From an uncultured Ruminococcus sp. (GTDB lineage Bacteria > Bacillota > Clostridia > Oscillospirales > CAG-272), in contig CAYWFS010000001.1 of the NCBI GenBank assembly GCA_964457685.1, forward strand, positions 12,878 through 76,877: a stretch of 64,000 nt of DNA, given 5' to 3'. The translations under genes and the position numbers were made by a program. The notes below the pieces were generated by a model. The model was given only the letters and a program-made list of their open reading frames with translations. It searched no databases and had not been told where the DNA came from. This document shows, in pieces, positions 2 through 53,264 of this stretch. Position 1 is the stretch's first letter. Every line of letters begins with the position of its first letter.

Positions 2-949
2 ACAGCTATGCACATCGCTGCGGTTTGCTCTCTCGAAGACAAGCTCATCCCCGCTGTAAACAAGCTCATTACAACCTTCCGTAAGCTTGAGCATGACCAC
101 GAAGGTATCACAAAGAGCGGTAGAACACACCTCCAGGACGCTACACCTATTAAGTTCTCTCAGGAAATTTCCGGCTGGCGTTCCTCTCTCGAAAAGGACG
201 TTGAGCTTATCGAAAGAGCTCTTCCCGCACTCAAGACCCTCGCACTCGGCGGTACAGCAGTAGGTACAGGTCTTAATGCTCCCAAGGGATTTGACGTAAA
301 GGTTGCCGAAGCTGTTTCCGCTATCACAGGCAAGAGCTTTGAAACAGCCGAAAACAAGTTCCACGCTCTTACAAGTAAGGATGAAATCGTATTCGCTCAC
401 GGTGCCGTTAAGGCTCTCGCTTGCGATATGATGAAGATTGCAAATGACGTTAGATGGCTCGCTTCCGGCCCCAGACTCGGTCTCGGCGAAATCACTATTC
501 CCGAAAACGAACCCGGTTCCTCCATCATGCCCGGTAAGGTTAACCCCACTCAGTGCGAAGCTGTAACAATGGTTGCCGTTCAGGTAATGGGTAACGACGT
601 AGCTGTTTCCATGGCTGCTTCTCAGGGTAACTTCGAGCTTAACGTATTTATGCCCGTTTGTATCTATAACTTCCTCCAGTCCGTTCGTCTTCTTGCAGAA
701 GCTATCGTTTCCTTTAACGACAACTGTGCTGTAGGTATCCGTGCAAAGGAAGACAAGATGCATGACAACCTTCACAACTCCCTCATGCTCGTAACAGCTC
801 TTAACCCCTACATCGGTTATGAAAATGCCGCTAAGACCGCGAAGAAGGCATTCAAGGAGAATATCTCCCTTAAGGAAGCCTGCGTAGCTCTCGGATTCCT
901 CACAGCTGAACGCTTCGATGAAGTATTCAAGCCCGAGGAAATGGCATAA
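2..949 (+). CDS. fumC: Class II fumarate hydratase (fumarase C), C-terminal ~315 aa; the 5' end lies upstream of the window
   Basis: The frame is open from the window edge to the stop at 947-949. It carries the fumarate-lyase signature GSSIMPGKVNPTQCEA and RTHLQDATP, which fit FumC better than aspartase. Confidence 0.85.
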   Translation, partial: TAMHIAAVCSLEDKLIPAVNKLITTFRKLEHDHEGITKSGRTHLQDATPIKFSQEISGWRSSLEKDVELIERALPALKTLALGGTAVGTGLNAPKGFDVKVAEAVSAITGKSFETAENKFHALTSKDEIVFAHGAVKALACDMMKIANDVRWLASGPRLGLGEITIPENEPGSSIMPGKVNPTQCEAVTMVAVQVMGNDVAVSMAASQGNFELNVFMPVCIYNFLQSVRLLAEAIVSFNDNCAVGIRAKEDKMHDNLHNSLMLVTALNPYIGYENAAKTAKKAFKENISLKEACVALGFLTAERFDEVFKPEEMA

Positions 950-1003
950 TTCAGGCATAATTGTCGCATAAACAACGCAATTAAATAATTTGGAGTAAAA
1001 AAT

Positions 1004-1786
1004 ATGAAAATTTCGTATTATCCGGGATGCACGCTGAAAAATAAGGCTGCCATCCTTGACAGATATGCGAGAGAGTCGGCGGCAGTCCTCGGATATGAGT
1101 TCGAGGAAATCGAAAACTGGCAGTGCTGTGGCGGTGCATATACCTCCGCAAAGGATGAGCTTGCAACAAAGCTTCCCTCTGTCAGAGCTCTTGCAAACGG
1201 ATATAAAAGCACGGGTCGTGTCGTAACGGTATGCTCCGCCTGCTATAATGTCCTTGCACAGACAAATAACGAGTTCGCCGTCAATCCCGACTTTGACAGA
1301 AGAGTGAATAACTACCTCTCTCCCGATTTTGAATATCACGGAGAAGGTAAGGTAATTCACTTCCTTGAGCTTCTCAGAGACGAAATCGGCTTTGAAGAGC
1401 TTAAAAAGAAAGTCGTAAAGCCGCTTACAGGAAAGAAGATTGCCGCATATTACGGTTGTCTCCTCCTCCGTCCCTCATCCGTGCTGAAGTTTGATGACCC
1501 CGAAAACCCCGAGATAATGGAAAATCTTATCCGTGCTCTCGGTGCCGAACCCGTCATCTATCCCATGCGTAACGAATGCTGCGGCGGCTACATAACTCTC
1601 GAGGATACTGCTCAGGCAGCAAAGAGAAGCGGTGCTGTGGCTTCAAGTGCAAAGGATATGGGTGCGGACTTTATGATAACCGCCTGCCCGCTTTGCCAGT
1701 ACAACATCAAAAAGCACTCCGGCACAGGTCTGGAGATCAAATATTTCACCGAAGTTCTCGCAGAAGCACTCGGTATTGTAGATTAA
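1004..1786 (+). CDS. Heterodisulfide reductase subunit B-like protein (two CCG cysteine-rich domains; HdrB / TfrB C-terminal / SdhE-like)
   Basis: 260 aa with two copies of the C...CCGG...CxxC pattern (WQCCGG..CSAC and NECCGG..CPLC). GGAG lies upstream of the ATG. Confidence 0.8.
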   Translation: MKISYYPGCTLKNKAAILDRYARESAAVLGYEFEEIENWQCCGGAYTSAKDELATKLPSVRALANGYKSTGRVVTVCSACYNVLAQTNNEFAVNPDFDRRVNNYLSPDFEYHGEGKVIHFLELLRDEIGFEELKKKVVKPLTGKKIAAYYGCLLLRPSSVLKFDDPENPEIMENLIRALGAEPVIYPMRNECCGGYITLEDTAQAAKRSGAVASSAKDMGADFMITACPLCQYNIKKHSGTGLEIKYFTEVLAEALGIVD

Positions 1787-1805
1787 TCAAGTGGGAGGAC
1801 TTAAT

Positions 1806-2189
1806 ATGAACGCAGATTTAAAGGAACAGGTTCTCCGTATCAGCGGCTCGGAAGTCGGCAAGTGTATGCGTTGCGGCAAATGCTCCGCTACCTGCCCGTC
1901 ATACGATGAGATGGAATACCATCCGCATCATTTTGTATACCTTGTCGAACGCGGAGACATCGAAAGGCTCATGGAGTCGGAATCTATTTATAAGTGTCTG
2001 ACTTGTTTTGCCTGCGTAGAAAGATGTCCGCGTGGCGTTGAACCTGCCAAGGTAGTTGAAGCCATAAGAGTAGAAGCGGTTCGTCGTCAGGGAAAGAACC
2101 ATCTTAAAGCAGATGATATTCCCGCAAAGCTCGACGATGATATGCCGGGACAGGCTCTTATGACCGCTATGAGAAAATATTCCAAGTAA
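1806..2189 (+). CDS. HdrC-like 2x[4Fe-4S] ferredoxin-type subunit
   Basis: Contains the motifs CMRCGKCSATCP and CLTCFACVERCP. The ATG at 1806 is preceded by GGGAGG; the ORF-track start at 1791 is a GTG inside that Shine-Dalgarno sequence and is less likely. Confidence 0.75.
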   Translation: MNADLKEQVLRISGSEVGKCMRCGKCSATCPSYDEMEYHPHHFVYLVERGDIERLMESESIYKCLTCFACVERCPRGVEPAKVVEAIRVEAVRRQGKNHLKADDIPAKLDDDMPGQALMTAMRKYSK

Positions 2190-2224
2190 TACGGTAAACC
2201 TTTTTAAGAAAGGCAAGAAGAATA

Positions 2225-4216
2225 ATGCAAAGAATAGGTGTATTTGTATGTCACTGCGGTACTAATATCGCAGGTACAGTTGACACAAAAGCCGTAGCGG
2301 AAGCTCTCGGACGTGAACAGTGCGTCGTATTCTCTACGGACTATACATATATGTGTTCCGAAGCAGGTCAGAACCTCATTAAGGACACAATAAAGAATGA
2401 AAAGCTTACAGGAATCGTAGTATGCTCCTGCTCTCCGAGAATGCATGAGGCTACATTCCGTAAAACAGCCGCTGCCGCAGGTCTCAACCCCTACATGGTA
2501 GAGATCGCAAACATTCGTGAGCAGTGCTCCTGGATTCACAAGAACATGGCGGAAGCTACCGAAAAGGCTATAATCCTCGGTCGTGCCGCTATCGCAAAGG
2601 TACTTCTCAATACTCCTCTTACAGCAGGTGAAAGCCCCGTTGTAAAGAGAGCTCTCGTTATCGGCGGTGGTATTGCCGGTATCCAGACAGCTCTCGATAT
2701 CGCAGAAGCAGGCTTTGAAGTAGATATAGTTGAAAAGAAGCCCACTATCGGCGGTAAGATGACCCAGATAGACAAAACCTTCCCGACTCTTGACTGTGCA
2801 GCTTGTATCCTCACTCCTAAGATGGTTGACTGTGCTCAGAACGAGAAGATTAAAATCTACTCCTACAGTGAAGTTGAGTCCGTATCCGGATTCGTTGGTA
2901 ACTTCTCTGTAAAAATCAAGAGAAAAGCAAGATTTGTTGACGAAACAAAGTGTACAGGCTGCGGTCTTTGTACAGAAAAATGCCCGATGAAGAACGTACC
3001 GAACGAATTCAACCTCGGTATGGATAACCGTCGTGCAATCTATATTCCTTTCGCTCAGGCTGTTCCGAAGGTTGCTACAATCGACCCCGATCATTGTAAT
3101 ATGCTCAAGAACGGCAAGTGCGGTGTTTGCTCCAAGGTATGCTCTGCCGGTGCTATCGACTATAAGCAGACAGATACATACGTTGAAGAAAAGTACGGTG
3201 CTATCGTAGTTGCTACCGGCTTCAACCCCATTGACGTTTCCAAGTACGGCGAATATGCTTACAACGAATCCAAGGACGTTGTTACATCCCTTGAACTCGA
3301 AAGACTTATGAACGCCGCAGGTCCTACATCCGGTACTCTCCTCAGACCCTCCGACGGTAAGCATCCTCACACAATAGTATTCGTACAGTGCGTAGGCTCC
3401 AGATGCACACCTGAAAGAGGTAAGCAGTACTGCTCCAAGATTTGCTGTATGTATACCGCAAAGCATGCTATGCTTATCCGTGAAAAGTACCCCGATACAG
3501 AGGTTTATGTATTCTATATAGACGTTCGTACTCCCGGTAAGAGCTTCGATGAATTCTACCGCAGAGCAGTTGAAGATTTCGGCGTTCACTATATCAAGGG
3601 TGCTGTAGGTAAGGTATCTCCTCTGGCTGACGGTACTCTCGATGTTCAGGCTTCCGACCTCATTATGAACGAACAGCTTCACGTTAAGGCGGATATGGTA
3701 GTTCTCGCAGCTGCTATCGAACCCGATAAGTCCGCACGTCCTCTCGCAACAAAGCTCACAGCTTCCATGGATACAAACGACTTCTTCACCGAAGCACATC
3801 CGAAGCTCAGACCTGTTGAATCTCCCACAGCCGGTGTATTCCTCTCCGGTGTATGCCAGGGACCGAAGGATATTCCCGAAACAGTAGCTCAGGCAAGTGC
3901 TTGTGCCGCTAAGGTTATCGGACTCCTCGTTAAGGATAAGCTCACCTGCAACCCGTGCGTAGCTCATTCCAATGAGAATATGTGTAACGGATGCTCGCAG
4001 TGTGCTAATGTTTGCCCGTACGGTGCAATTACCTATGTTGAAAAGGAATTCAGAATGCCCGACAGAACGACCAAGATCAGACGTGTTGCAAGCGTTAACC
4101 CCGCAGTATGCCAGGGTTGTGGTGCTTGTACCGTTACTTGCCCGTCCGGAGCTATGGACCTCTTCGGATTCTCTAACAACCAGATCATGGCGGAGGTAGA
4201 CGCAATATGCAAATGA
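2225..4216 (+). CDS. HdrA-like FAD-dependent iron-sulfur flavoprotein (the bifurcating-type subunit of heterodisulfide reductases)
   Basis: 663 aa. N-terminal Cys cluster (CHCGTN), dinucleotide fold VIGGGIAGIQTALDIAEAG, and four ferredoxin motifs (CTGCGLCTEKCP, CGVCSKVCSAGA, CNGCSQCANVCPYGA, CQGCGACTVTCPSGA). Confidence 0.85.
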   Translation: MQRIGVFVCHCGTNIAGTVDTKAVAEALGREQCVVFSTDYTYMCSEAGQNLIKDTIKNEKLTGIVVCSCSPRMHEATFRKTAAAAGLNPYMVEIANIREQCSWIHKNMAEATEKAIILGRAAIAKVLLNTPLTAGESPVVKRALVIGGGIAGIQTALDIAEAGFEVDIVEKKPTIGGKMTQIDKTFPTLDCAACILTPKMVDCAQNEKIKIYSYSEVESVSGFVGNFSVKIKRKARFVDETKCTGCGLCTEKCPMKNVPNEFNLGMDNRRAIYIPFAQAVPKVATIDPDHCNMLKNGKCGVCSKVCSAGAIDYKQTDTYVEEKYGAIVVATGFNPIDVSKYGEYAYNESKDVVTSLELERLMNAAGPTSGTLLRPSDGKHPHTIVFVQCVGSRCTPERGKQYCSKICCMYTAKHAMLIREKYPDTEVYVFYIDVRTPGKSFDEFYRRAVEDFGVHYIKGAVGKVSPLADGTLDVQASDLIMNEQLHVKADMVVLAAAIEPDKSARPLATKLTASMDTNDFFTEAHPKLRPVESPTAGVFLSGVCQGPKDIPETVAQASACAAKVIGLLVKDKLTCNPCVAHSNENMCNGCSQCANVCPYGAITYVEKEFRMPDRTTKIRRVASVNPAVCQGCGACTVTCPSGAMDLFGFSNNQIMAEVDAICK

Positions 4217-4650
4217 ATGAAAACGAAAAATTCGTCCCGACCATAGTAGCATTCTGCTGCAACTGGTGTTCATATGCGGGAGCTGACCTTTCCGGTACAA
4301 ACCGTCTTCAGTATCCTGCAAACGTAAAGATTATCAGAGTTCCCTGCTCATGCCGTGTAAACCCCATGTTCATTCTCCGTGCATTCCAGAGAGGTGCCGA
4401 CGGTGTTATTCTCTGCGGATGCCATCCGGGAGACTGCCACTATACATCGGGTAACTTCTACGCACGTCGCCGTATGACTCTCCTGTTCAGTATGCTCGAC
4501 TTCCTCGGAATCGAAAGAAACAGAACCAGAGTTGAATGGGTATCGGCAGCTGAAGGTGCAAAATTCGCCGCAACAATGAACAGCTTTGCGGAAGAAATCA
4601 CAAAACTCGGACCTAACCGCAGACTGGAGGACCTGAGATGCAAGAAATAA
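4207..4650 (+). CDS. MvhD/FlxD-like protein (methyl-viologen-reducing hydrogenase delta-subunit family)
   Basis: 147 aa with FCCNWCSYAGADLSG, CSCRV and CGCHPGDCHY, all typical of MvhD. It overlaps the hdrA-like stop by 10 nt. Confidence 0.8.
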   Translation: MQMNENEKFVPTIVAFCCNWCSYAGADLSGTNRLQYPANVKIIRVPCSCRVNPMFILRAFQRGADGVILCGCHPGDCHYTSGNFYARRRMTLLFSMLDFLGIERNRTRVEWVSAAEGAKFAATMNSFAEEITKLGPNRRLEDLRCKK

Positions 4651-5627
4651 TCATAAAAGAAACAATGGTAAACAGAGCAAAGGAGCTTCTCGCCGACGGT
4701 ACAGTAGCAAGAGTTATCGGCTGGAAAGCTGGCGAATTTGCTTATGACTCCACTCCCGCCGTATTCACAACTGCGGAAGAATTAGATAACGAATTTGTTT
4801 ACGACAGCTTCTGTGCGGCTAACGTATCGAAGTATCTCGTAAAGGAAGCCGCTAAAGAGGGAAAGGTACTCGTATTCCTCAAGCCCTGCGATACATTCTC
4901 TCTCAACCAGCTTACAGCAGAACACAGAGTTAACCGTGAAAACGTATACGTTATCGGTATTCCCTGCGAAGGCAAAGCTGATGTTGAAAAGATAAAGGCA
5001 AAGGGTATCGAGGGTATCACAGGTATCGAAGAAGACGGCGACAATTACATCGTTAAGACCGTTTACGGCGACTCCACCGTTGCAAAGTCCGATGCTATCG
5101 CTGACCGTTGCGTAACCTGCAAGAGTAAGCGTCACGTTGTTTACGATGAGCTTATCGGCGAAGACGGCGAAGATAACCCGAACTCTGGCAGATTCGACCT
5201 CGTTGAAAAGCTTGAAGCTATGACTTCCGAGGAACGCTTTGAGTTCTGGAGAGGCGAGCTTTCAAGATGTATTCGTTGTAATGCCTGCCGTAATGTATGT
5301 CCTGCTTGTACCTGCGAAACCTGCGTATTCGACAACCCGAACTCCGGTGTTGCTCAGAAAGCTGCCGCAGACTCCTTTGAGGAAAAGAACTTCCACATAA
5401 TCCGTGCGTTCCACGTTGCGGGAAGATGTACAGACTGCGGTGAATGCTCCAGAGTTTGCCCCGAGCATATTCCGCTTCACCTCCTCAACCGTAAGTTCAT
5501 CAAGGATATTGACGAGCTTTACGGAGACTACACAGCAGGTAACGATACAGAATCCCGTCATCCTCTTACATCATATACATTCGATGACGTAGAACCCTCA
5601 GTTGTACATGAAAGAGGTGTTGAATAA
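4638..5627 (+). CDS. Iron-sulfur protein, FlxC-like (FrhB-like N-terminus plus 2x[4Fe-4S])
   Basis: 329 aa with motifs CIRCNACRNVCPACTC and CTDCGECSRVCP. GGAGG lies upstream, and it overlaps the preceding gene by 13 nt. Confidence 0.6.
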   Translation: MQEIIIKETMVNRAKELLADGTVARVIGWKAGEFAYDSTPAVFTTAEELDNEFVYDSFCAANVSKYLVKEAAKEGKVLVFLKPCDTFSLNQLTAEHRVNRENVYVIGIPCEGKADVEKIKAKGIEGITGIEEDGDNYIVKTVYGDSTVAKSDAIADRCVTCKSKRHVVYDELIGEDGEDNPNSGRFDLVEKLEAMTSEERFEFWRGELSRCIRCNACRNVCPACTCETCVFDNPNSGVAQKAAADSFEEKNFHIIRAFHVAGRCTDCGECSRVCPEHIPLHLLNRKFIKDIDELYGDYTAGNDTESRHPLTSYTFDDVEPSVVHERGVE

Positions 5628-6655
5628 TGAAGTATTTAGCTAAAGCAGACCTTAACCTCTTCCTTTCCGCCGCTTCCAAGGTGATGAAGGTTTACGCTCC
5701 CGTAGACAACAGTGCAGGTAAGGCTGATTATAAGCTTTGGAGCGAGGGTACTGTTGTATCAAACGCTCTCCATACAACAAGAAGTGCAAAGGATTTCTTC
5801 TTCCCCCAGACAGAAAGCCTTGTTGAATTTAAAATAGATCACAAGAAGATCGATATTATCGACCCCAGAGTTGAAAGAGAAGATTTCGTTATCTTCGGTG
5901 TTCGTGCTTGTGATGTTCGCTCCTTTGATATACTTGACAGAGTATTCCTCTATGCAGATCCAGTAGATACATACTACAAAAATCGCCGTGAGCATTCTCT
6001 TATCATCTCCATGTCCTGCGACCGTCCTCATGAAACCTGCTTCTGCTCCGCTTTCGGTATAGATGCTTCCGAACCCGCTGGAGATATCGTCTTCACAACA
6101 GCGGCTGACGGTTATTACGTTACCGCAAAGACAGAAAAGGGCGAAAAGTTCCTCTCCGATATCGGTTATACCTTTGAAGATAAGGATGAATCCGGTGCCG
6201 AAGAAGCTAAGGCTAAGACAAAGGATATTATGTCCCGTCTTCCCCTTGCAAAGCTTGACACATCTGCGTTCGGCGGCGGCAAGACAAAGGAACTCTTCGA
6301 CAGACCCGAATGGAATGCACTTTCCGAAACCTGTCTCGGTTGCGGTACCTGCACATTCGTATGCCCGACTTGTCAGTGCTACGACATCAGAGACTTTAAG
6401 ACCAATACAGGCGTTCAGCGTTTCAGATGCTGGGACAGCTGTATGTATTCCGACTTTACAAAGATGGCAGGCGGTAACCCGAGACTTACTCAGAAGGAAC
6501 GCTTCCGTCAGAGATTCATGCATAAACTCGTATATTATCCCGAAAACAATGACGGTATCTTCGGTTGCGTAGGTTGCGGCAGATGCCTTGCTTCCTGTCC
6601 TATCCACATGAATATCGTTAAAGTAATGAAAAAACTCACGGAGGAATCAAAATAA
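5627..6655 (+). CDS. Iron-sulfur protein, FlxB / AsrA / sulfhydrogenase-beta-like
   Basis: 342 aa with motifs CLGCGTCTFVCPTCQCYD and CVGCGRCLASCP. The TAATG junction overlaps the stop of the preceding gene. Confidence 0.65.
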   Translation: MKYLAKADLNLFLSAASKVMKVYAPVDNSAGKADYKLWSEGTVVSNALHTTRSAKDFFFPQTESLVEFKIDHKKIDIIDPRVEREDFVIFGVRACDVRSFDILDRVFLYADPVDTYYKNRREHSLIISMSCDRPHETCFCSAFGIDASEPAGDIVFTTAADGYYVTAKTEKGEKFLSDIGYTFEDKDESGAEEAKAKTKDIMSRLPLAKLDTSAFGGGKTKELFDRPEWNALSETCLGCGTCTFVCPTCQCYDIRDFKTNTGVQRFRCWDSCMYSDFTKMAGGNPRLTQKERFRQRFMHKLVYYPENNDGIFGCVGCGRCLASCPIHMNIVKVMKKLTEESK

Positions 6656-7479
6656 TGAATGAAGCTTTAATTCCTCATATTGGCGAAGTTGTCGATATAA
6701 GAATTGATACTCCCGACGTAAAAACATTCCGTGTGCTTACCCCCGACGGAAAGAAGCCCTTTGAGCATATGCCCGGTCAGTGTGCTATGCTTTCTATCCC
6801 CGGTGTTGGCGAAGCTCTCTTCTCTATCACATCTTCTCCCACAAACCGTGAATATATGGAATTTTCCATTAAAAAGTGCGGTTGCCTTACAGAATGGCTC
6901 CATATGATGGATGTCGGACAGCAGATTACTATCCGTGGTCCTTACGGTAAGGCGTTCCCCGTTGAGACAGAACTCAAGGGAAAGGATCTCCTCTTTATCG
7001 CCGGCGGTATCGGTCTTGCTCCTCTCCGTTCCGTTATCAACTATGTAAGAGATAACAGAGAAAACTACGGTAAAGTTCAGATCGTTTACGGTGCAAGATC
7101 CAAGGACGACCTCGTTGACTACAAGGAAATTATAGACGAATGGATGGCTGATGACGGTATCGAAGTTAACCTCACAATCGACCGTGAACAGGAAGGCTGG
7201 GACGGTCATGTCGGATTCATCCCGAACTATGTTAAGGAGCTTGCTCCCGACCTCAAGAAGACTGTTCTCATGTGCGGACCTCCGATCATGATCAAGTTCA
7301 CACTCGCAGGACTTATCGAACTCGGCTTTGAAAAGACTCAGATCTATACTACAATGGAGCTGAAGATGAAGTGCGGTATCGGTAAGTGCGGCAGATGTAA
7401 TATCGGTTCTAAGTATGTCTGCAAGGACGGTCCCGTGTTCCGTTTCGACGAACTCGGAGAGCTTCCGGACGAGTATTGA
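6655..7479 (+). CDS. FAD/NAD(P)H-binding oxidoreductase with C-terminal [2Fe-2S] (FlxA / AsrB / sulfhydrogenase-gamma-like)
   Basis: 274 aa. Ferredoxin-reductase-type fold (LLFIAGGIGLAPLRS) and C-terminal CGIGKCGRCNIGSKYVCKDGP. The TAATG junction overlaps the preceding gene. Confidence 0.75.
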   Translation: MNEALIPHIGEVVDIRIDTPDVKTFRVLTPDGKKPFEHMPGQCAMLSIPGVGEALFSITSSPTNREYMEFSIKKCGCLTEWLHMMDVGQQITIRGPYGKAFPVETELKGKDLLFIAGGIGLAPLRSVINYVRDNRENYGKVQIVYGARSKDDLVDYKEIIDEWMADDGIEVNLTIDREQEGWDGHVGFIPNYVKELAPDLKKTVLMCGPPIMIKFTLAGLIELGFEKTQIYTTMELKMKCGIGKCGRCNIGSKYVCKDGPVFRFDELGELPDEY

Positions 7480-7520
7480 TAAGCGTCCCATAATTTCATG
7501 AAATTTTTGGAGATATAATA

Positions 7521-8195
7521 ATGGAAAATATGGTTCATGTATTTCTTATGGGCAAGCAGTACGAAGTTCCCTCAAACCTCACTATCATGGGTGCGATGGA
7601 ATATGCCGGATATCAGCTTGTCCGCGGTTGTGGCTGCCGTAACGGATTCTGCGGAGCTTGTGCTACCGTTTACAGAATCAAGGGAGACCGCGAGCTTAAG
7701 GTGTGTCTCGCTTGCCAGACAAAAGTAGAAGATAATATGTATATCGCAACTCTGCCTTTCTTCCCCCTCGCAAAGCAGGTTTACGATATGGAAAAAATAA
7801 AGCCCACAGAGGCTATCATGATGCAGCTCTATCCCGAAATATACAGCTGTATCGGATGCAATGCCTGCACAAAGTCCTGCACACAGGGCCTTAATGTTAT
7901 GCAGTATATCGCGTATGCTCAGAGAGGTGACTTTGAAAAGTGTGCCGAGCTTTCCTTTGACTGCGTAATGTGCGGCGTTTGCTCCTCGAGATGCCCCGCA
8001 GGTATTTCTCATCCTCAGGTTGCAATGCTTGCAAGAAGACTTAACGGTAAGTATCTTGCTCCCGGTTGCGAACACCTTGAGAACAGAGTGAAGGAAATCA
8101 AGGACGGAACATTTGAAGAACTCCTTGAATCCCTCATGCAGAAGCCTATCGAGGAAATGAAGGAACTCTACAACAACAGAGAGATCGAAAAGTAA
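7521..8195 (+). CDS. Fumarate reductase / succinate dehydrogenase iron-sulfur subunit-like protein (FrdB/SdhB-like)
   Basis: 224 aa. N-terminal plant-type 2Fe-2S Cys pattern (RGCGCRNGFCGACA...CLAC) followed by CIGCNACTKSC and CVMCGVCSSRCP. Confidence 0.7.
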   Translation: MENMVHVFLMGKQYEVPSNLTIMGAMEYAGYQLVRGCGCRNGFCGACATVYRIKGDRELKVCLACQTKVEDNMYIATLPFFPLAKQVYDMEKIKPTEAIMMQLYPEIYSCIGCNACTKSCTQGLNVMQYIAYAQRGDFEKCAELSFDCVMCGVCSSRCPAGISHPQVAMLARRLNGKYLAPGCEHLENRVKEIKDGTFEELLESLMQKPIEEMKELYNNREIEK

Positions 8196-8212
8196 GGAAG
8201 GAGCAAGCCAAT

Positions 8213-9838
8213 ATGTCTATGTACACAGGACAGATGTATGAATCCATGAAAAAGGTGGAGGCTGCCAGAGAAGCGAATACCGTCCTCGAACCCCGCAGAA
8301 TGACTGCCGAGGAAAAGGACACGCTCCTTCAAACTTACCACCCCGACTATAAACAGTCGGAATTTGCAAACCTCAAGGTCGGAGTTAACGCAGGCGAAAA
8401 GGTTCCTCATGAGCTTGCGGCACTTCTCGAAGCACATTCCAGAATTACAGCTTCCGATGTTGACCTTAATAAGGTAGACTACGACGTTGACGTTCTCATT
8501 ATCGGTGGTGGCGGTGCAGGTGCATCTGCTGCTATCGAAGCCGACAACAACGGTGCTAAGACTATGATAGTTACTAAGCTCCGTATCGGCGACGCTAACA
8601 CAATGATGGCTGAAGGCGGTATCCAGGCGGCAGATAAGCCTAACGACAGCCCTGCTATTCACTACGTTGACGCTTTCGGTGGCGGTCACTTCGCAGCTAA
8701 GCCCGACCTTCTTTACAAGCTCGTAAATGAAGCTCCCGATGCTATTAAGTGGCTCTCCGACCTCGGCGTTGAATTCGATAAGACTGCCGACGGTACTATG
8801 GTTACAACCCACGGTGGCGGTACCTCCAGAAAGAGAATGCACGCCGCTAAGGACTATTCCGGTGCCGAAATTATGAGAACTCTCCGTGACGAAGTTTTCA
8901 ACCGCGGTATTCCGGTAGTTGACTTTACCTCCGCAGTTGAACTTATCCTCGATGAGAACGGTAAGTGCGGCGGTGCAGTCCTCATGAATATGGAAACAGG
9001 CGAACTTCTCGTAGCTCGTGCTAAGACCGTTATTCTTGCTACAGGTGGTGCAGGAAGACTTCACTACCAGGGCTTCCCGACTTCCAACCACTACGGTGCT
9101 ACTGCCGATGGTCTTATCCTCGGTTACAGAGTAGGTGCAAAGCTTCTTTACGCTGATACACTTCAGTATCACCCCACAGGAGCCGCATATCCCGAGCAGA
9201 TTTTCGGTGCTCTCGTTACGGAAAAGGTTCGTTCTCTCGGTGCAAAGCTCGTTAACGCTAACGGTGAAGTATTCATGAATCCTCTTGAAACCCGTGACGT
9301 TTCCGCAGCTTCCATCATTCGTGAATGCACAGCAAGAGGTAACGGTGTTCATACTGCCGACGGTGTTGGTGTATGGCTCGATACTCCTATGATTGAGATT
9401 AAGGGCGGCGAGGGTACTATCGAAGCGAGAATCCCCGCAATGATGAGAATGTTCGGCAAGTACGGCATCGACATCAGAAAAGAGCCTATCCTCATTTACC
9501 CCACACTTCACTACCAGAACGGCGGTCTTGACATCGCTCCCGACGGTATGACAGGCGTTGAAAACCTCTACGCTGCCGGTGAAGTTGTCGGCGGTATCCA
9601 CGGAAGAAACAGACTTATGGGTAACTCCCTCCTCGACGTTATCGTATTCGGTAGAAACGCAGGTAAGTTCGCTTCCGAAAAGTCCAAGTCCGTTGAAGTA
9701 GGTAAGCTCACTCTCGAGCATATCGAAAAGTTCTCCAAGGAACTCAGTGATGCGGGAATCGACACAGACGTTAAGTCTCCTAAGCTCCTTCCTACATACA
9801 CACACGGCAATCCCAACATCACAAAGGCTCCTTTCTGA
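8213..9838 (+). CDS. Fumarate reductase / succinate dehydrogenase flavoprotein-like subunit (FAD_binding_2 family)
   Basis: 541 aa with DVLIIGGGGAGASAAIEA, QYHPTG, ETRDV and RNRLMGNSLLD motifs, as in FrdA/SdhA/NadB. It follows the FrdB-like gene by 17 nt. Confidence 0.75.
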   Translation: MSMYTGQMYESMKKVEAAREANTVLEPRRMTAEEKDTLLQTYHPDYKQSEFANLKVGVNAGEKVPHELAALLEAHSRITASDVDLNKVDYDVDVLIIGGGGAGASAAIEADNNGAKTMIVTKLRIGDANTMMAEGGIQAADKPNDSPAIHYVDAFGGGHFAAKPDLLYKLVNEAPDAIKWLSDLGVEFDKTADGTMVTTHGGGTSRKRMHAAKDYSGAEIMRTLRDEVFNRGIPVVDFTSAVELILDENGKCGGAVLMNMETGELLVARAKTVILATGGAGRLHYQGFPTSNHYGATADGLILGYRVGAKLLYADTLQYHPTGAAYPEQIFGALVTEKVRSLGAKLVNANGEVFMNPLETRDVSAASIIRECTARGNGVHTADGVGVWLDTPMIEIKGGEGTIEARIPAMMRMFGKYGIDIRKEPILIYPTLHYQNGGLDIAPDGMTGVENLYAAGEVVGGIHGRNRLMGNSLLDVIVFGRNAGKFASEKSKSVEVGKLTLEHIEKFSKELSDAGIDTDVKSPKLLPTYTHGNPNITKAPF

Positions 9839-9854
9839 GTCTTAATATAAATAA

Positions 9855-9895
9855 AAAGATTTGCTCTGAAAAATCGGGCAAATCTTTTTTGTTTT
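9855..9895 (+). terminator. Rho-independent terminator of the hdr-flx-frd operon
   Basis: AAAGATTTGC (9855-9864) pairs with GCAAATCTTT (9878-9887) and is followed by a T-run. Confidence 0.8.
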
Positions 9896-9919: not shown

Positions 9920-9948
9920 TTGATATTGATCGTGCAAAGTGGTATAAT
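9920..9948 (+). promoter_or_regulatory. Sigma-A-type promoter for the riboswitch-controlled operon
   Basis: TTGATA (9920-9925), a 17-nt spacer, then TATAAT (9943-9948), with TGG immediately upstream of the -10 (TGn extended -10). Confidence 0.6.
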
Positions 9949-9954
9949 ATCATG

Positions 9955-10175
9955 GATGCAGAGGTACTCTTAGCTGAGTTCAAACCGGAAACAGGTGAAA
10001 ATCCTGTACGAGCCCGTCACCGTGAATCACGTCAAACCGTCATATCGAGAAGATCGCACTCGAGCCATTGGGAAACCGAGAAGGCATGACGGGAAATATC
10101 CGTGTAAGTCGGGATACCTGCCTCGAACCTGCTGTAATTTGCGAGTGCCGACAGAAATAATTCTGACAGCAGGGC
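9955..10175 (+). promoter_or_regulatory. Cobalamin (B12) riboswitch
   Basis: The conserved core elements are present in order: AGGTGAAAATCCTG, GAGCCCGTCACCGT, GCCATTGGGAAACCGAGAAGG and the B12-box AAGTCGGGATACCTGCC (10106-10122). A 3' helix pairs CCTGCTGT with ACAGCAGG (10166-10173). Confidence 0.85.
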
Positions 10176-10213
10176 ATTAAAAACAATCTTAACTTTTTAA
10201 GGAGAAATCAAAA

Positions 10214-10624
10214 ATGAAAAAACAGTTTAAAGCTATTTTTAAGTTTTCCGCTGTTGTAATGCTCATTGCGATCATGGCATTTACATTTATTTCCTGCGAT
10301 AAGGAAAATAACGATGTCAACACGGAAGCAATCACTATCGTAGTTGAGGTGATAAACAAGGCAGGCGAATCGTCTGAATTTGATGTTACCACTACGGGAA
10401 CAACACTTGCGGATGCACTTCTCGAAGCAAATCTGGTTGAGGGAACGAACGACGAATACGGTCTCTATATCACAACAGTAAACGGCGAAGTTGCGGACTA
10501 CAGTGCAGACCAGTCCTATTGGGCAATCTCCAAGGACGGCGAATATCTTATGACAGGTGCTTCCTCTACCGATATTGCCGACGGAGAGCATTACGAGCTT
10601 ACATACACAGTTTACGGTAACTGA
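10214..10624 (+). CDS. DUF4430-like lipoprotein (transcobalamin-like small domain; candidate surface corrinoid binder)
   Basis: 136 aa. Signal peptide with lipobox FISC, then a C-terminal YGLYITTVNG...YWAISKDGEY...DGEHYELTY pattern typical of DUF4430. AAGGAG Shine-Dalgarno sequence; the gene sits directly behind the B12 riboswitch. Confidence 0.7.
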   Translation: MKKQFKAIFKFSAVVMLIAIMAFTFISCDKENNDVNTEAITIVVEVINKAGESSEFDVTTTGTTLADALLEANLVEGTNDEYGLYITTVNGEVADYSADQSYWAISKDGEYLMTGASSTDIADGEHYELTYTVYGN

Positions 10625-11148
10625 TGAAATCTCACGCAAAAATAAAAAGCATGATTGTGTTCTCAATGCTGGGGGCACTCATGCTTGCCTCGAAGCTTGC
10701 ACTTGAATTTCTGCCGAATATCCATCCGCTTGCGATGTTCGTTATGGTTTTTACCGTTGTTTATCGCTTTAAGGCACTGATACCGATATATATGTTCGTG
10801 CTTCTTTCCGGACTTTATTACGGATTTCAGCTGTGGTGGATGCCTTATCTCTACATATGGACGTATATGTGGGCGGTAACGATGCTTCTGCCGAAAAATA
10901 TGCCGAGAAAGGTCGCCGTTATAGTATATCCTCTTGTATGTGCGTTTTTCGGACTCACCTACGGAACGGTATACGCACCTGCTCAGGCAATAATGTTCGG
11001 GTATGATTTTCCGACAATGATAAAGTGGATAATAGCCGGACTTCCGTGGGATGTGCTTCACGGACTCGGAAACCTCGGTATGGGTCTTCTGGTGTATCCG
11101 CTTTCAAGAACGCTTATGCGACTTGAGAAAAAAGGCAATATTGTGTGA
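10624..11148 (+). CDS. Small polytopic membrane protein, ECF-type S-component-like (candidate corrinoid capture subunit)
   Basis: 174 aa with about five or six hydrophobic helices. Its start overlaps the stop of the DUF4430 gene (CTGATG). The functional call comes from context and size only. Confidence 0.55.
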   Translation: MKSHAKIKSMIVFSMLGALMLASKLALEFLPNIHPLAMFVMVFTVVYRFKALIPIYMFVLLSGLYYGFQLWWMPYLYIWTYMWAVTMLLPKNMPRKVAVIVYPLVCAFFGLTYGTVYAPAQAIMFGYDFPTMIKWIIAGLPWDVLHGLGNLGMGLLVYPLSRTLMRLEKKGNIV

Positions 11149-20017: not shown

Positions 20018-22291
20018 TTACTTTCCGGCTTTCGCTGCAATGAGCTTTTGAGCCTTGTCAAGCATACCAGAGTCCTGACGCTGTGCCATAACGAGTCTCC
20101 AGTAGAAGCCCTTGAGTTCAAGAAGCTCCTGGTGAGTACCGAACTCTACTACATGACCCTTGTCAAGCACGAGAAGTCTGTCTGCGTTGCGGAGAGTCGA
20201 GAGTCGGTGAGCAATGGCAAAGGTGGTTCTGTCCTTTGTAAGCTTGTTGATAGCGTCCTGAATGAGCTTTTCCGTTTCGGTATCGAGAGCGGCTGTAGCT
20301 TCATCGAGGATAAGAACCTTCGGGTTGTGAATAAGAGCACGGGCAATTGCAACACGCTGTCTTTCACCGCCGGAGAGTGAATAACCCTTTTCACCTACCA
20401 TGGTGTTGTAGCCCTCGGGGAGGTTTACGATGAAGTCATGTGCATTAGCAAGCTTTGCGGCGGCAATAACCTCTTCGTCTGTAGCGTGAGGCTTCGCATA
20501 TTTGATGTTGTCTCTTATGGAACCGGAGAAGAGGTGAGTTTCCTGAAGAACTACGCCTATCTGAGAACGGAGTGCATTCTGTGATATATCCTTGATGTTA
20601 ACTCCGTCTATCTCGATTGAACCGTCCGTTACATCATAGAGACGCATGAGGAGGTTTATAAGCGTTGTCTTACCGGAACCCGAGTGACCGACGATACCGA
20701 TCATTTCGCCCTTCTTGATGTCGATGTTGATGTTTTCGAGAACGGGGTTGTATGTATCGTAGCCGAATGTTACGTTCTTTATGCTGATGTCACCCTCGAT
20801 GGAAATATCAATAGGAAGACCTATATCCGATACTTCCGGCTGTTCCTCGAGAATTTCAAGAACCTTTCCGAGAGAGGTAAGGAACGATGAAATGTTACGG
20901 GGAATGAAGGTTATCCAAAGCAGAGGACCGTAGATGATGTTTGAGTAGGAGTTGAACTGGTGGAGGTCACCGTAGCTCATAGCACCCTTAAAGAGGAGAT
21001 AGTTTCCGTAGAACAGGATGAGATAGCTACCGAAACGTACCGCAAATCCGAGGAGCGGGAAGACAGTATCGAACAGCAGAGCATTTGATTCGGACTGCTG
21101 TGCGGAACGGTCTGTACGCTTATGGAAGGTTGCGATTTCTCTTTCCTCGTTACCGAATGCCTTAACGACACGGATACCGTTTAAAACGTCCTGGAGGAAA
21201 AGGTTTACATGGTGTCCGAGAACCCAGTTCTTTGTGTTACGATGCTGCATGGTTGCCCAGAACTTGTAAACAAGATAAACAACAAGCGGAATCGGAACAA
21301 ATACGAACAAGCTCATCAGAGGGTTGAGTATGAGCAGGAATATAAGTGCAAGGATGAACGAAGCACCCTGAGTGAAAAGGCTGGGGAGCTGGTTCGTCAT
21401 GAAGTCCTGAACGACGTTTACATCCCCTGTGATTCTTCCCATAAGGTCACCGGTGGATTTACGCTGAATCGAGGAGACCGAGAGGGTAGAAATCTTTTCG
21501 TAGAGAAGTGTACGCATCATAAGGGTGAATTTGTTACCCGAGATTGCGGACATACGGCTTTGCAATACGCTGAGAACACGCTGAACAAGGTCTATCGAGA
21601 TGATAGCGATGAATATCAGCACGAACGAACGAAGGTGGGGGTCACTGAACGAGTTTACGGGACGGATGGATTCATTTGTCAGGTAGTCGTTTACGGCGAC
21701 CTTCTGAATTGCGGGGAGTACGAACTGGATTATAAGTGAGAAAACGGATACGAACAGAGGGAAGAACAGCATGAGTCTGAGACCCTTTGTAAGTCCCCAG
21801 AGCTTCTTGTAAACTTCCTTGGTGTTTCGGCAGAACGGACAGAGCTTTGTGCCTCTGATAAAGGGACGACCGCATTTCGGACAGAATCTTTCGGGATCGT
21901 CGTTTGTTACAGGCTCTCCGGGAGCTTTTTCCTCACGTCTTTTCTTTGCAAGATCTTCGCAGGCATGGACGAGAACGGAATATCTCGGAAGATTTCGACC
22001 GCTCAGGAAACGGCATACAAGAGTTGTAATACCGTCAACCTCCGCATAGAACGAGCAGTTACCATACAGTACTTCTGTCGAGAATATACCGCACCTTGAA
22101 AGGTCGATTTCGTTTATTATCTTTCCGTTCAGTATGCAGAGTATTCTTCTGTCGGTTACCGCCGTCCAGCCGTCAACAAATTTGTCCTCGAGTACGTTGA
22201 ACGGAACAACATACATAAGTTTTTCGCCTTGCTCGGCAGATGAATCATAAGCCGCTCTGTCAAGCTCCGGCAAATCGTACATCAGTTTCAT
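20018..22291 (-). CDS. ABC exporter half-transporter (TMD-NBD) with an N-terminal cytoplasmic extension of about 160 aa ending in a zinc ribbon
   Basis: 757 aa. Walker A GHSGSGKTT, signature LSGGERQR, Walker B LILDEATAALD. The N-terminal CPKCGRPFIRGTKLCPFC precedes the first TM helix. Confidence 0.85.
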   Translation of the reverse strand: MKLMYDLPELDRAAYDSSAEQGEKLMYVVPFNVLEDKFVDGWTAVTDRRILCILNGKIINEIDLSRCGIFSTEVLYGNCSFYAEVDGITTLVCRFLSGRNLPRYSVLVHACEDLAKKRREEKAPGEPVTNDDPERFCPKCGRPFIRGTKLCPFCRNTKEVYKKLWGLTKGLRLMLFFPLFVSVFSLIIQFVLPAIQKVAVNDYLTNESIRPVNSFSDPHLRSFVLIFIAIISIDLVQRVLSVLQSRMSAISGNKFTLMMRTLLYEKISTLSVSSIQRKSTGDLMGRITGDVNVVQDFMTNQLPSLFTQGASFILALIFLLILNPLMSLFVFVPIPLVVYLVYKFWATMQHRNTKNWVLGHHVNLFLQDVLNGIRVVKAFGNEEREIATFHKRTDRSAQQSESNALLFDTVFPLLGFAVRFGSYLILFYGNYLLFKGAMSYGDLHQFNSYSNIIYGPLLWITFIPRNISSFLTSLGKVLEILEEQPEVSDIGLPIDISIEGDISIKNVTFGYDTYNPVLENINIDIKKGEMIGIVGHSGSGKTTLINLLMRLYDVTDGSIEIDGVNIKDISQNALRSQIGVVLQETHLFSGSIRDNIKYAKPHATDEEVIAAAKLANAHDFIVNLPEGYNTMVGEKGYSLSGGERQRVAIARALIHNPKVLILDEATAALDTETEKLIQDAINKLTKDRTTFAIAHRLSTLRNADRLLVLDKGHVVEFGTHQELLELKGFYWRLVMAQRQDSGMLDKAQKLIAAKAGK

Positions 22292-22332
22292 AATTTGACT
22301 GCCTTTCCGGATTTTTTATCTGGGTGTTGTAC

Positions 22333-23001
22333 TCAGATATAGATCTCAATGTACTTGTAGCTCAGCTTGTCGAGCTTTGAAGGATCGGGGATAACGAAGC
22401 AGTTACCGTCCATATCGGAGATGAATATTCTCATATCTTCAAGAACACGAATGTTGGAGAAGGGGTTGTTGAGAACGATGGAGGCACTTCCGGCTGTGGT
22501 GTCGGCTTCCCAGTAGGTATAACCGAACTTTTCCTTTGAGGAGTTAATCTTCTTTATTTCGGGAGTGAAGTAGCGAACGTCAAGCTCATCGTTAATAAGC
22601 TTTACGGTGTCCTTGTCGAAATCCGCGAGATTGCGAATCATTCCGATTTCCGCACCTCTGCCCTTAATACGAGAGTCAGGCTCTCTTACCGAAAGAAATT
22701 CATTCGGGGCGGTAACGGGGAAGGAGCGGCGAATAACTACTCTTTCAAAAAATTCTTCTTCACCCTCTGCGTTGATTATCTTAAGAGAGATAAGTCCGCC
22801 GCTTGAGAGTGAAAAGTGAGAGTTTTCCGTGGTCATGTTTATGGATTCTCTGTGCTTAAACAGCTCATCCGTATCAACCTCTCCGTCTTCCTCGGCGGGA
22901 GCGTCGTTTTTCTTTTTTTCTTCAGCCTTGCTTTCGAGCTTTTTTTCTTCTGCTTTATTTGTATCCGCGGTTTTTACGGTATCTTTTTCCTTGGTTGCCA
23001 T
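22333..23001 (-). CDS. DUF1854-like protein with a Lys/Glu-rich N-terminal tail
   Basis: 222 aa, sandwiched between the two ABC genes. The family call is from memory of DUF1854 gene context and size. Confidence 0.5.
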   Translation of the reverse strand: MATKEKDTVKTADTNKAEEKKLESKAEEKKKNDAPAEEDGEVDTDELFKHRESINMTTENSHFSLSSGGLISLKIINAEGEEEFFERVVIRRSFPVTAPNEFLSVREPDSRIKGRGAEIGMIRNLADFDKDTVKLINDELDVRYFTPEIKKINSSKEKFGYTYWEADTTAGSASIVLNNPFSNIRVLEDMRIFISDMDGNCFVIPDPSKLDKLSYKYIEIYI

Positions 23002-23034
23002 AATATTACCTATCCTTTCATACTGAAATCGGAC

Positions 23035-43352: not shown

Positions 43353-43375
43353 AACGATTGAAAGGAAGAACGAAA

Positions 43376-49576: not shown

Positions 49577-49991
49577 GGACGGTTGTCTTGATTATTCAGC
49601 TGAATTATATTCCCACATCCGGGTTAGTTTAAACATAGGAGAATTTGTCCGAAAGGATAAATTCTCGAGAGTGGGATGGTTGACTGAATTATTCAGCTGA
49701 ATTATATTCCCACATCCGGGTTAGGTAATCCATAGGAGAATTTGTCCGAAAGGATAAATTCTCAGGAGTGGGACGGTTGTCTTGATTATTCAGCTGAATT
49801 ATATTCCCACATCCGGGTTAGTTTAAACATAGGAGAATTTGTCCGAAAGGATAAATTCTCGAGAGTGGGATGGTTGACTGAATTATTCAGCTGAATTATA
49901 TTCCCACATCCGGGTTAGGTAATCCATAGGAGAATTTGTCCGAAAGGATAAATTCTCAGGAGTGGGACGGTTGTCTTGATTATTCAGCTGA
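49577..49991. repeat. Tandem array of four full 97-bp units (A-B-A-B; the 194-bp A+B block is duplicated perfectly; A and B differ at 10 of 97 positions) plus a partial fifth unit that forms the 3' end of the GH43 gene
   Basis: Units occupy 49577-49673 (A), 49674-49770 (B), 49771-49867 (A) and 49868-49964 (B). Positions 49965-49991 are identical to the first 27 nt of unit A. Compared by eye, base by base. Confidence 0.95.
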
Positions 49992-50894: not shown

Positions 50895-50915
50895 ATCGTT
50901 TTCTCCCTCAAAAGC

Positions 50916-52199: not shown

Positions 52200-52226
52200 A
52201 TTTAATCTCCTTGTGGATTGATTTTT

Positions 52227-53234: not shown

Positions 53235-53264
53235 TTTAGCCTCTGTATTGTAAAATATTGTTAA

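Follow-up and report, generated by a model that had tools for sequence, protein, structure and literature searches.

Does the nine-gene operon that lies behind a fumarase gene (fumC) in the genome of an uncultured Ruminococcus sp. encode a soluble fumarate reductase that conserves energy by reducing ferredoxin? The operon stands at the beginning of a 64,000-nucleotide stretch of contig CAYWFS010000001.1 (assembly GCA_964457685.1, positions 12,878 to 76,877 of the forward strand); this whole 64-kb stretch is called the window here, and coordinates refer to it. A sequence-only reading, made without database searches, had proposed that the nine genes encode heterodisulfide reductase (Hdr)-like, MvhD-Flx, and FrdBA proteins acting together as an electron-bifurcating NAD(P)H:fumarate reductase. 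We found the operon to be a real and intact member of a type that has already been predicted under the name "succinate operon," and neither its architecture nor the bifurcation idea is original to this locus. On balance we favor, with somewhat better than even confidence, the reading that the nine gene products form one soluble iron-sulfur (FeS)/flavin complex in which NAD(P)H reduces fumarate while ferredoxin is reduced concurrently by flavin-based electron bifurcation.

Organization of the operon

Nine tightly packed open reading frames (ORFs) on the plus strand span positions 1004 to 9838, directly behind a partial fumC. Their products were assigned domains by profile searches against Pfam and NCBIfam and by alignment to solved structures, as follows.

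8 to 949, plus strand: 3' part of fumC (class II fumarate hydratase), its 5' end cut by the window start; Lyase_1 and FumaraseC_C domains, TIGR00979 fumC_II 490 bits over model positions 145 to 456
1004 to 1786, plus strand: HdrB-like protein with two CCG domains (Pfam CCG, twice), the ligands for two noncubane [4Fe-4S] clusters
1806 to 2189, plus strand (the ORF opens with GTG 1791): HdrC-like subunit with two [4Fe-4S] clusters; Fer4_8/Fer4_17, TIGR03290 HdrC 67.5 bits (cutoff, 160)
2225 to 4216, plus strand: HdrA with FAD and six predicted [4Fe-4S] clusters, the presumed bifurcating flavoprotein; NCBIfam HdrA2 788 bits
4207 to 4650, plus strand: MvhD/FlxD-like [2Fe-2S] connector; Pfam FlpD 187 bits over the full model
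4638 to 5627, plus strand: FlxC-like FeS protein with a 4Fe-4S dicluster domain; Fer4_8/Fer4_17, other dicluster models, and a weak FrhB_FdhB_C match
5627 to 6655, plus strand: FlxB-like FeS protein of the AsrA/sulfhydrogenase beta type; Fer4_22 108 bits, and ShyB (184 bits), HydB (173 bits), and AsrA (166 bits), all below cutoffs
6655 to 7479, plus strand: FlxA-like NAD(P)H-binding flavoprotein with a [2Fe-2S] cluster, the presumed point of electron entry; FAD_binding_6, NAD_binding_1, and DHODB_Fe-S_bind
7521 to 8195, plus strand: FrdB/SdhB-like protein with an N-terminal [2Fe-2S] motif and two four-Cys [4Fe-4S] motifs but no CCG domain; Fer2_4, Fer2, Fer2_3, and dicluster models
8213 to 9838, plus strand: FrdA/TfrA-like fumarate reductase flavoprotein; FAD_binding_2 244 bits, best NCBIfam model TfrA 347 bits (cutoff, 718)
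9853 to 9895, plus strand: intrinsic terminator at the operon end, a 16-bp hairpin followed by a T-run

The first of the nine genes begins 54 nt after the fumC stop codon, and the spacing of genes within the block lies between -13 and +41 nt; at four junctions, the start of one gene overlaps the stop of the preceding one (-10, -13, -1, and -1). In this layout, including the strong terminator, our coordinates and folding agree with the sequence-only reading, and the identities that it gave to the nine products were borne out by the profiles, weakly so for FlxC and FrdB. All nine ORFs lie where it had placed them; the second gene, which it had started at 1791, more likely starts at ATG 1806 than at GTG 1791. 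A ribosome-binding site (GGGAGGA) is found 7 nt 5' of this ATG, and the resulting product of 127 amino acids (aa) has the same length as its counterpart in a relative whose FrdA is 96% identical.

The terminator hairpin was found by direct folding (-18.7 kcal/mol; z = -5.67), and none of 200 shuffled sequences was equally stable; a simple terminator scan with a loop limit of 8 nt had missed it. Since the terminator is followed by a new promoter-like site and a riboswitch unit, the 3' end of the operon is placed at about position 9895. A promoter-like match in the gap between fumC and hdrB (961 to 989; 9 of 12 positions) scored no better than shuffled sequences and was therefore not taken as a separate start.

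A Kyte-Doolittle scan with a 19-residue window, a crude measure compared with a dedicated predictor, predicted none of the nine proteins to contain a transmembrane segment, as the sequence-only reading had expected of a soluble enzyme. The highest window reached 1.62 and fell in the Rossmann fold of gene 7; the same scan did flag transmembrane segments in both proteins encoded downstream of the riboswitch. Within the block there is no gene for a membrane anchor or cytochrome b of the kind found in quinol:fumarate reductases of types A to D.

Three long ORFs on the minus strand (2204 to 4321, 6667 to 7491, and 8168 to 9805) were taken as shadow ORFs, because the plus-strand frames have strong family matches. 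They are nearly coextensive with hdrA, flxA, and frdA, one being exactly 274 aa long like the gene on the sense strand, which we attribute to codon bias. By eye, as opposed to by library search, their translations look of low complexity.

Heterodisulfide reductase-like and Flx subunits

Residues 3 to 660 of HdrA align with residues 5 to 648 of the HdrA of the Mvh-Hdr complex (5odc_A) at 692 bits, with all Cys motifs matched. The protein contains a thioredoxin-reductase-like FAD domain, an N-terminal cluster domain, the motif CxGSR...CSxxCC, and both an inserted and a C-terminal ferredoxin domain with two [4Fe-4S] clusters each. The cutoff of the HdrA2 model, 1,100 bits, applies to the form that is fused to MvhD, and the separate MvhD/FlxD-like protein of the operon matches the C-terminal MvhD part of that model (180 bits) as well as VhuD (140 bits). 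The HdrB-like protein aligns over its full length with methanogen HdrB (8rvv_B; 112 bits), and all ten CCG cysteines are aligned (GC/CC/CxxC, twice). In NCBIfam its top match is SdhE (146 bits), followed by HdrB (135 bits; cutoff, 345), both below cutoff. A sequence search started from this protein gave nothing beyond close relatives and generic names. The equivalog cutoffs of the CoB-CoM enzymes are missed by all Hdr proteins of the operon.

The FlxA-like protein scores 233 bits with PRK08345, 200 bits with HydG, and 196 bits with AsrB. Genes 4 to 7 together fit the architecture of FlxABCD beside hdrABC, a fit of architecture only, as the libraries used hold no curated Flx model. Position and architecture alone would make gene 5 FlxC-like.

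The fumarate reductase module

The cysteine motifs of the FrdB-like protein read CRNGFCGAC...C (Cx4Cx2Cx14C), followed by two copies of CxxCxxCxxxC. The second cluster motif thus has four cysteines, predicting a [4Fe-4S] rather than a [3Fe-4S] cluster. Profile matches were weak, with TfrB at 34 bits (model positions 19 to 148), dhsB at 31 bits (cutoff, 88), and Fer2_3 at an E value of 1.4e-3; comparison with SdhB chains gave E values of about 1e-4 over residues 38 to 160. The TfrB model of NCBIfam is tiled by three products of the operon, FrdB (19 to 148), HdrC (129 to 221), and HdrB (412 to 465), and these three small subunits therefore appear to resemble a split version of methanogen TfrB.

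The FrdA-like protein belongs to no curated equivalog. Besides TfrA, it matches sdhA_frdA (272 bits; cutoff, 567), fum_red_Fp (190 bits; cutoff, 933), and NadB TIGR00551 (269 bits; cutoff, 453), none reaching cutoff. In an alignment with FrdA, SdhA, and NadB of Escherichia coli, the catalytic and dicarboxylate-binding residues H232, T244, E245, R287, H355, and R390 of FrdA correspond to H320, T336, E337, R361, H433, and R467 and are all kept, which upholds the link to fumarate drawn by the sequence-only reading. The histidine that links FAD in FrdA (H44) is replaced by Asn129, and the NadB-specific Glu121 by Gly201. In an alignment of the family down to 40% identity, Asn129 and the catalytic/dicarboxylate residues other than T336 are listed as invariant. 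The FAD of this protein is probably bound noncovalently. The protein also has a conserved N-terminal extension of 90 aa, lacks Succ_DH_flav_C (PF02910), and ends about 120 residues early compared with FrdA, SdhA, and TfrA. The best Foldseek match of an AlphaFold2 model was E. coli FrdA (1kf6_A).

Relatives of the FrdA-like protein were drawn from a search of 1.8 billion cluster representatives, and ten of them were classified with NCBIfam. A neighbor-joining tree separates the family, as a distinct clade, from E. coli NadB, SdhA/FrdA, and a bona fide TfrA (P0200; 765 bits); it was built without bootstraps and rooted on the single NadB, and it shows that the family is distinct rather than its precise placement. 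The grouping with NadB that the sequence-only reading had named as one refuting outcome was thus not seen. The sister group in this tree consists of flavoproteins of about 400 residues without the N-terminal extension or the C-terminal domain (P0158, P0169, P0173, P0180, P0188, P0191, P0193, and P0203).

Conservation and genomic neighborhood

When one genome per GTDB species was scanned, at least 594 genomes proved to encode a relative of the flavoprotein. The best 80 of these loci, with FrdA 75 to 84% identical, were compared by searching them with the proteins of the window (tblastn). Nearly all are metagenome-assembled genomes (MAGs) of gut and rumen Clostridia, and they include Yeguia hominis, Candidatus Avoscillospira, and a MAG labeled Ruminococcus flavefaciens. 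The nine genes are complete, colinear, and on one strand in each of the 57 loci with at least 8.4 kb of sequence upstream of frdA (57/57). The arrangement is far from chance, and the conservation that the sequence-only reading had asked to see is complete among these loci. Median identity across loci is about 78 to 84% for HdrA, MvhD, FlxA, FrdB, and FrdA and about 60 to 66% for HdrB, HdrC, FlxC, and FlxB.

In 54 of the 57 loci, the gene immediately upstream of the block is fumC. For the other three, replacement by a class I fumarase was ruled out, unrelated genes being found upstream there. In the relative with the 96% identical FrdA, fumC is preceded by a gene for a dehydrogenase of the lactate dehydrogenase (LDH) family (L084/L085, 417 to 1361), a homologue of which is upstream of fumC in 46 of the 54 loci. 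The protein passes the NCBIfam cutoffs for L-lactate dehydrogenase and has an arginine at the Gln102 position (GVARKPG). According to the classical Gln102Arg rule, Arg at this discriminating position predicts specificity for oxaloacetate/malate. Because of this residue, the protein is probably an LDH-like malate dehydrogenase (MDH), liable to be misnamed by automatic annotation.

Directly after frdA, 53 of the 80 loci carry a gene for an AAE-family transporter of about 415 aa with two Asp-Al_Ex domains (AspT/YidE/YbjL type); the gene after the FrdA homologue starts 33 to 155 nt downstream (loci L004 to L083). The AAE family includes SucE, the succinate exporter of Corynebacterium, and the transporter is a candidate succinate exporter. 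Another 12 to 16 loci have, in place of the transporter, a hydrophobic protein of about 105 aa without a Pfam match. No AAE-type gene was found anywhere in the 64-kb window by tblastn, and a downstream transporter as a tenth gene of the operon described here was ruled out, as the terminator and the riboswitch unit follow frdA. The usual unit of MDH, fumC, the nine genes, and the exporter is a complete route from oxaloacetate to exported succinate, and it is because these genes flank most loci that we place the operon in such a module.

FrdBA in other gene settings

Distant members of the flavoprotein family, 40 to 57% identical and with the N-terminal extension, occur in other gene settings. 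On a scaffold from marine Gammaproteobacteria (L086, 9366 to 12891), genes for an FrdB-like protein and an FrdA-like protein (47% identical, with the N-terminal extension) are followed by a NuoF-like gene (Complex1_51K, SLBB, and NADH_4Fe-4S); this three-gene unit is possibly a minimal soluble NADH:fumarate reductase. On a metagenomic contig (L087, 811 to 9771), a ferredoxin, a four-subunit 2-oxoacid:ferredoxin oxidoreductase, and HdrA-MvhD-HdrC-HdrB-FrdB-FrdA are encoded in one run. Here FrdA is 57% identical, hdrB directly abuts frdB, and the contig stops before any Flx genes could appear. This run ties Hdr-Frd to ferredoxin metabolism, and it resembles the reverse tricarboxylic acid (TCA) cycle clusters of tubeworm symbionts that are discussed below. 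Two further contigs have frdA with only frdB beside it or with nothing beside it. Since FrdBA occurs with at least three input modules (Flx-Hdr, Hdr with 2-oxoacid:ferredoxin oxidoreductase, and NuoF-like), it looks like a portable soluble fumarate reductase cassette, to which interchangeable electron-input modules may be attached.

Relation to known systems

The "succinate operon" of Pseudoclostridium thermosuccinogenes comprises a fumarate hydratase gene, seven Flx-Hdr genes, two fumarate reductase genes, and a putative succinate transporter gene (PMC7282089). It was proposed to couple the reduction of fumarate and ferredoxin via Flx-Hdr (Koendjbiharie et al., BMC Microbiol 2020, PMC7282089, citing a preprint of 2019 by Koendjbiharie and van Kranenburg, 10.20944/preprints201912.0288.v1). 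The operon of the window shares its proposed function and its layout of fumC plus seven plus two genes on one strand (8 to 9838), and from the published description, rather than from sequence, we infer that the two are orthologous; the 80 loci compared above do not include the P. thermosuccinogenes genome. The layout in P. thermosuccinogenes is the majority form of the related loci, including the AAE transporter, whereas the copy in the window has no transporter and ends at the terminator. P. thermosuccinogenes is a thermophile of another family of Clostridia, and the relatives of the window operon are from gut and rumen Oscillospirales. Published support consists of an approximately 4-fold coregulation of the P. 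thermosuccinogenes operon and the loss of succinate formation under H2 (proposals in PMC7282089, PMC6315080, and PMC13147460), and a survey of 2026 still treats fumarate-ferredoxin coupling as a suggestion backed by coexpression (PMC13147460).

In tubeworm symbionts and Thioflavicoccus, flxABCD-hdrABC is interspersed with tfrAB and korABCD, and the authors proposed a bifurcating complex that reduces both fumarate and ferredoxin (Rubin-Blum et al., mSphere 2019, PMC6315080). These clusters also have a soluble two-subunit fumarate reductase colocated with Flx-Hdr. They serve autotrophic CO2 fixation by the reverse TCA cycle, with ferredoxin feeding 2-oxoglutarate synthase, whereas the context in the window and its relatives is fermentative (MDH, fumarase, and exporter), the gene order is different, and there are no kor genes. 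The FlxABCD-HdrABC of Desulfovibrio vulgaris, as summarized in PMC7282089 and PMC6315080, was proposed to bifurcate NADH-derived electrons between ferredoxin and a high-potential acceptor (Ramos et al. 2015). By those summaries it has the same seven protein types, a likeness of type and not of sequence identity, but it has no FrdBA attached, and its electrons are proposed to go to a protein disulfide (DsrC); the order in the window, hdrBCA-flxDCBA, is the reverse of flxABCD-hdrABC.

Methanogen TfrAB is likewise soluble and quinone independent, and TfrA is the best-scoring curated family of the flavoprotein. TfrB, however, is one fused protein, and the electron donors of TfrAB are CoM-SH and CoB-SH, which are not known to occur in Clostridia. 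The flavoprotein of the window further differs from TfrA in its score (347 bits, against the cutoff of 718), its separate clade, its N-terminal extension, and its missing C-terminal domain. Bifurcation has been established by experiment for the related Mvh-Hdr (MvhAGD-HdrABC) and Fdh-Hdr complexes of methanogens. HdrA, HdrB, HdrC, and MvhD of the window align with their structures (5odc, 7bkb, and 8rvu) over the full length, and the cluster ligands are kept. In the methanogen complexes, electrons enter from H2 or formate via a hydrogenase or Fdh and the acceptor is CoM-S-S-CoB, whereas the window has Flx as the input and FrdBA as the acceptor module. A CCG protein also partners with SdhAB in the type E succinate:quinone oxidoreductases and MFR (SdhABE), in keeping with SdhE as the top match of the HdrB-like protein (146 bits). 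Those enzymes are membrane associated and use quinones, unlike the predicted complex.

Proposed mechanism and alternative explanations

In the mechanism that we favor, NAD(P)H would be oxidized at the FAD of FlxA, with either NADH or NADPH as the possible donor. The FeS clusters of FlxA, FlxB, and FlxC would relay the electrons singly to FlxD, the MvhD-like protein, whose [2Fe-2S] cluster would hand them on to the FAD of HdrA, where the flavin would split each electron pair. The low-potential electron would be driven uphill through the ferredoxin-like domains of HdrA to ferredoxin. The high-potential electron would run downhill through HdrC, the CCG clusters of HdrB, and, presumably by direct transfer, FrdB to the noncovalent FAD of FrdA and to fumarate. 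The predicted net reaction is 2 NAD(P)H + fumarate + 2 Fd(ox) -> 2 NAD(P)+ + succinate + 2 Fd(red), in which Fd is ferredoxin. Bifurcation is plausible from the homology to bifurcating HdrA/MvhD complexes and from thermodynamics: given the established potentials of NADH (-320 mV), fumarate (+33 mV), and ferredoxin (about -450 mV) (PMC5861303), the reaction would be exergonic by about 40 kJ per fumarate. Of the refuting outcomes that the sequence-only reading had named, those open to computation (grouping with NadB, a block that is not conserved, and a membrane anchor) were not observed. Physiologically, the complex would provide the final reaction in a fermentative branch by which quinone-independent Clostridia convert oxaloacetate to succinate and export it.

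Several points weigh against such a bifurcating complex. The assignment of FrdB would follow from its motif pattern and its fixed place beside FrdA, its similarity being weak, and that of FlxC likewise comes from weak similarity. The AlphaFold2 model of the FrdA-like protein is of moderate quality (predicted local distance difference test, 69; predicted template modeling score, 0.74). The disulfide-reducing site of HdrB is apparently intact and leaves room for a thiol/disulfide intermediate. No ferredoxin, Rnf, or hydrogenase gene that would close the redox loop was found in the 64-kb window. FrdBA appears to function without Hdr, since it is found with the NuoF-like module, and FrdA with FrdB alone or with no FrdB. 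Finally, the literature searched contains no biochemical characterization of any member, whether purification or an assay, including NADH- and fumarate-dependent ferredoxin reduction. On this last matter the sequence-only reading was right about the biochemistry of this exact architecture, while the architecture and the hypothesis themselves had already been published (PMC7282089 and PMC6315080).

One alternative is a soluble NADH:fumarate reductase that does not bifurcate, in which Flx, MvhD, and Hdr merely wire NADH to FrdBA and no ferredoxin is reduced. The 47% identical marine gammaproteobacterial FrdBA, followed only by the NuoF-like subunit, implies simple NADH-dependent fumarate reduction in that family, and in Hydrogenobacter thermophilus a fumarate reductase with five subunits that depends on NADH (Miura et al. 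2008, cited via PMC13147460) is reported in that survey as a plain NADH enzyme, by which account it has no full HdrA/MvhD/Flx set. We nevertheless regard a plain reductase as unlikely for the nine-gene block: its seven extra redox subunits would be costly where one NuoF-like protein appears to suffice, the drop of 350 mV from NADH to fumarate would be wasted, the full-length HdrA closely resembles the archaeal enzyme that bifurcates (692 bits) and has retained the two ferredoxin-type domains, and none of the 57 loci departs from the architecture. Somewhat more doubtful is an arrangement of two enzymes linked by a soluble thiol, namely, a bifurcating Flx-Hdr disulfide/ferredoxin reductase followed by thiol-driven fumarate reduction. 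It would account for the retention by HdrB of all ten cysteines that form the disulfide-reducing site of methanogen HdrB, for TfrA as the best-scoring curated family of the flavoprotein (347 bits), and for the published figures on P. thermosuccinogenes, which show Flx-Hdr and fumarate reductase as separate boxes joined by thiols (PMC7282089). The thiol-oxidizing site of TfrB, however, is its CCG part, and FrdB has no CCG domain; with HdrB as its sole CCG protein, the operon does not encode a separate thiol:fumarate reductase. There is also no candidate gene for a thiol carrier (DsrC-like or similar) in the block or conserved beside it, and in L087 hdrB directly abuts frdB.

That the flavoprotein is no fumarate reductase at all, but an L-aspartate oxidase or a reductase of another enoate or dicarboxylate, we consider very improbable. 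The NCBI record of an 84% identical protein does carry the name L-aspartate oxidase, the scores with the models for NadB (269 bits), TfrA (347 bits), and SdhA/FrdA (272 bits) all stay below cutoff, the C-terminal domain of SdhA/FrdA is absent, and the FAD is probably noncovalent. Yet the NadB-specific Glu121 is a glycine, and the family stands apart from the NadB reference in the neighbor-joining tree (single NadB root, no bootstraps). The gene always has as its neighbor one for an SdhB-like FeS protein, a subunit that NadB does without, and the block is linked to fumC (54/57), the LDH-like MDH (46/54), and the AAE-type exporter (53/80).

Implications

Compared with the earlier proposals (PMC7282089 and PMC6315080), the present analysis adds the invariance of the block across dozens of gut and rumen clostridial species, its ties to the LDH-like MDH and the AAE exporter, the peculiarities of the flavoprotein (N-terminal extension, Asn for the FAD-linking His, and no C-terminal domain), and the occurrence of the FrdBA cassette with at least three input modules. 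If bifurcation is real, fumarate would be added to the few high-potential acceptors, such as crotonyl-CoA, caffeyl-CoA, and heterodisulfide, that drive the reduction of ferredoxin, which would explain the energy gain from succinate formation in fermenters without quinones or cytochromes. The enzyme is probably common in gut Clostridia, because relatives of the flavoprotein occur in at least 594 species-level genomes and, among the best 80 loci, the block is complete at all those that are long enough. In the gut and rumen, succinate is an important metabolite of cross-feeding and host signaling, and industrial fermentation aims at its production.

A broader picture can be drawn tentatively, and we would give it slightly less than an even chance. 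In it, FrdBA is a portable cassette used by at least three input modules, and a split TfrB wires the high-potential branch of HdrA to fumarate without a thiol carrier. The complex would be the first flavin-based bifurcating enzyme driven by fumarate, and it may provide a widespread energy-conserving route to succinate in cytochrome- and quinone-free Oscillospirales of the gut and rumen, possibly including succinate-forming ruminococci. The worth of the window is that of a clean, intact example with a well-defined transcription unit, and the enzyme class is a worthwhile target for biochemistry.

Downstream unit and other genes of the window

Right after the operon terminator lies a near-consensus promoter-like site (TTGATA, 17-nt spacer, TATAAT, extended TG; 11 of 12 matches), followed by three features.

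9945 to 10139: cobalamin riboswitch (RF00174, 62.5 bits)
10214 to 10624: DUF4430 protein, downstream of the cobalamin riboswitch
10624 to 11148: hydrophobic 174-aa membrane protein, overlapping the DUF4430 gene

Promoter, riboswitch, and both genes (9920 to 11148) are probably a B12-regulated uptake/binding unit. In the relative with the 96% identical FrdA, feoAB sits between frdA and this unit.

Elsewhere in the window, a 605-aa flavodiiron-type protein is encoded at 56184 to 58001 (plus strand), with metallo-beta-lactamase/ODP, flavodoxin, flavin reductase, and rubredoxin-like domains; it is probably an enzyme by which the anaerobe detoxifies O2 or NO. At 20018 to 25434 (minus strand), a DUF1854 protein (22333 to 23001) is flanked by tandem ATP-binding cassette exporters of 757 and 799 aa, in each of which the membrane and ATPase domains are fused. 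Encoded at 43358 to 45328 (plus strand) is a 656-aa protein that joins a class II aldolase/adducin domain to a short-chain dehydrogenase; together with the genes for an FGGY kinase, a GH43 protein, and a zinc-dependent alcohol dehydrogenase at 49980 to 54920, it suggests a region for the utilization of sugars or deoxy sugars.

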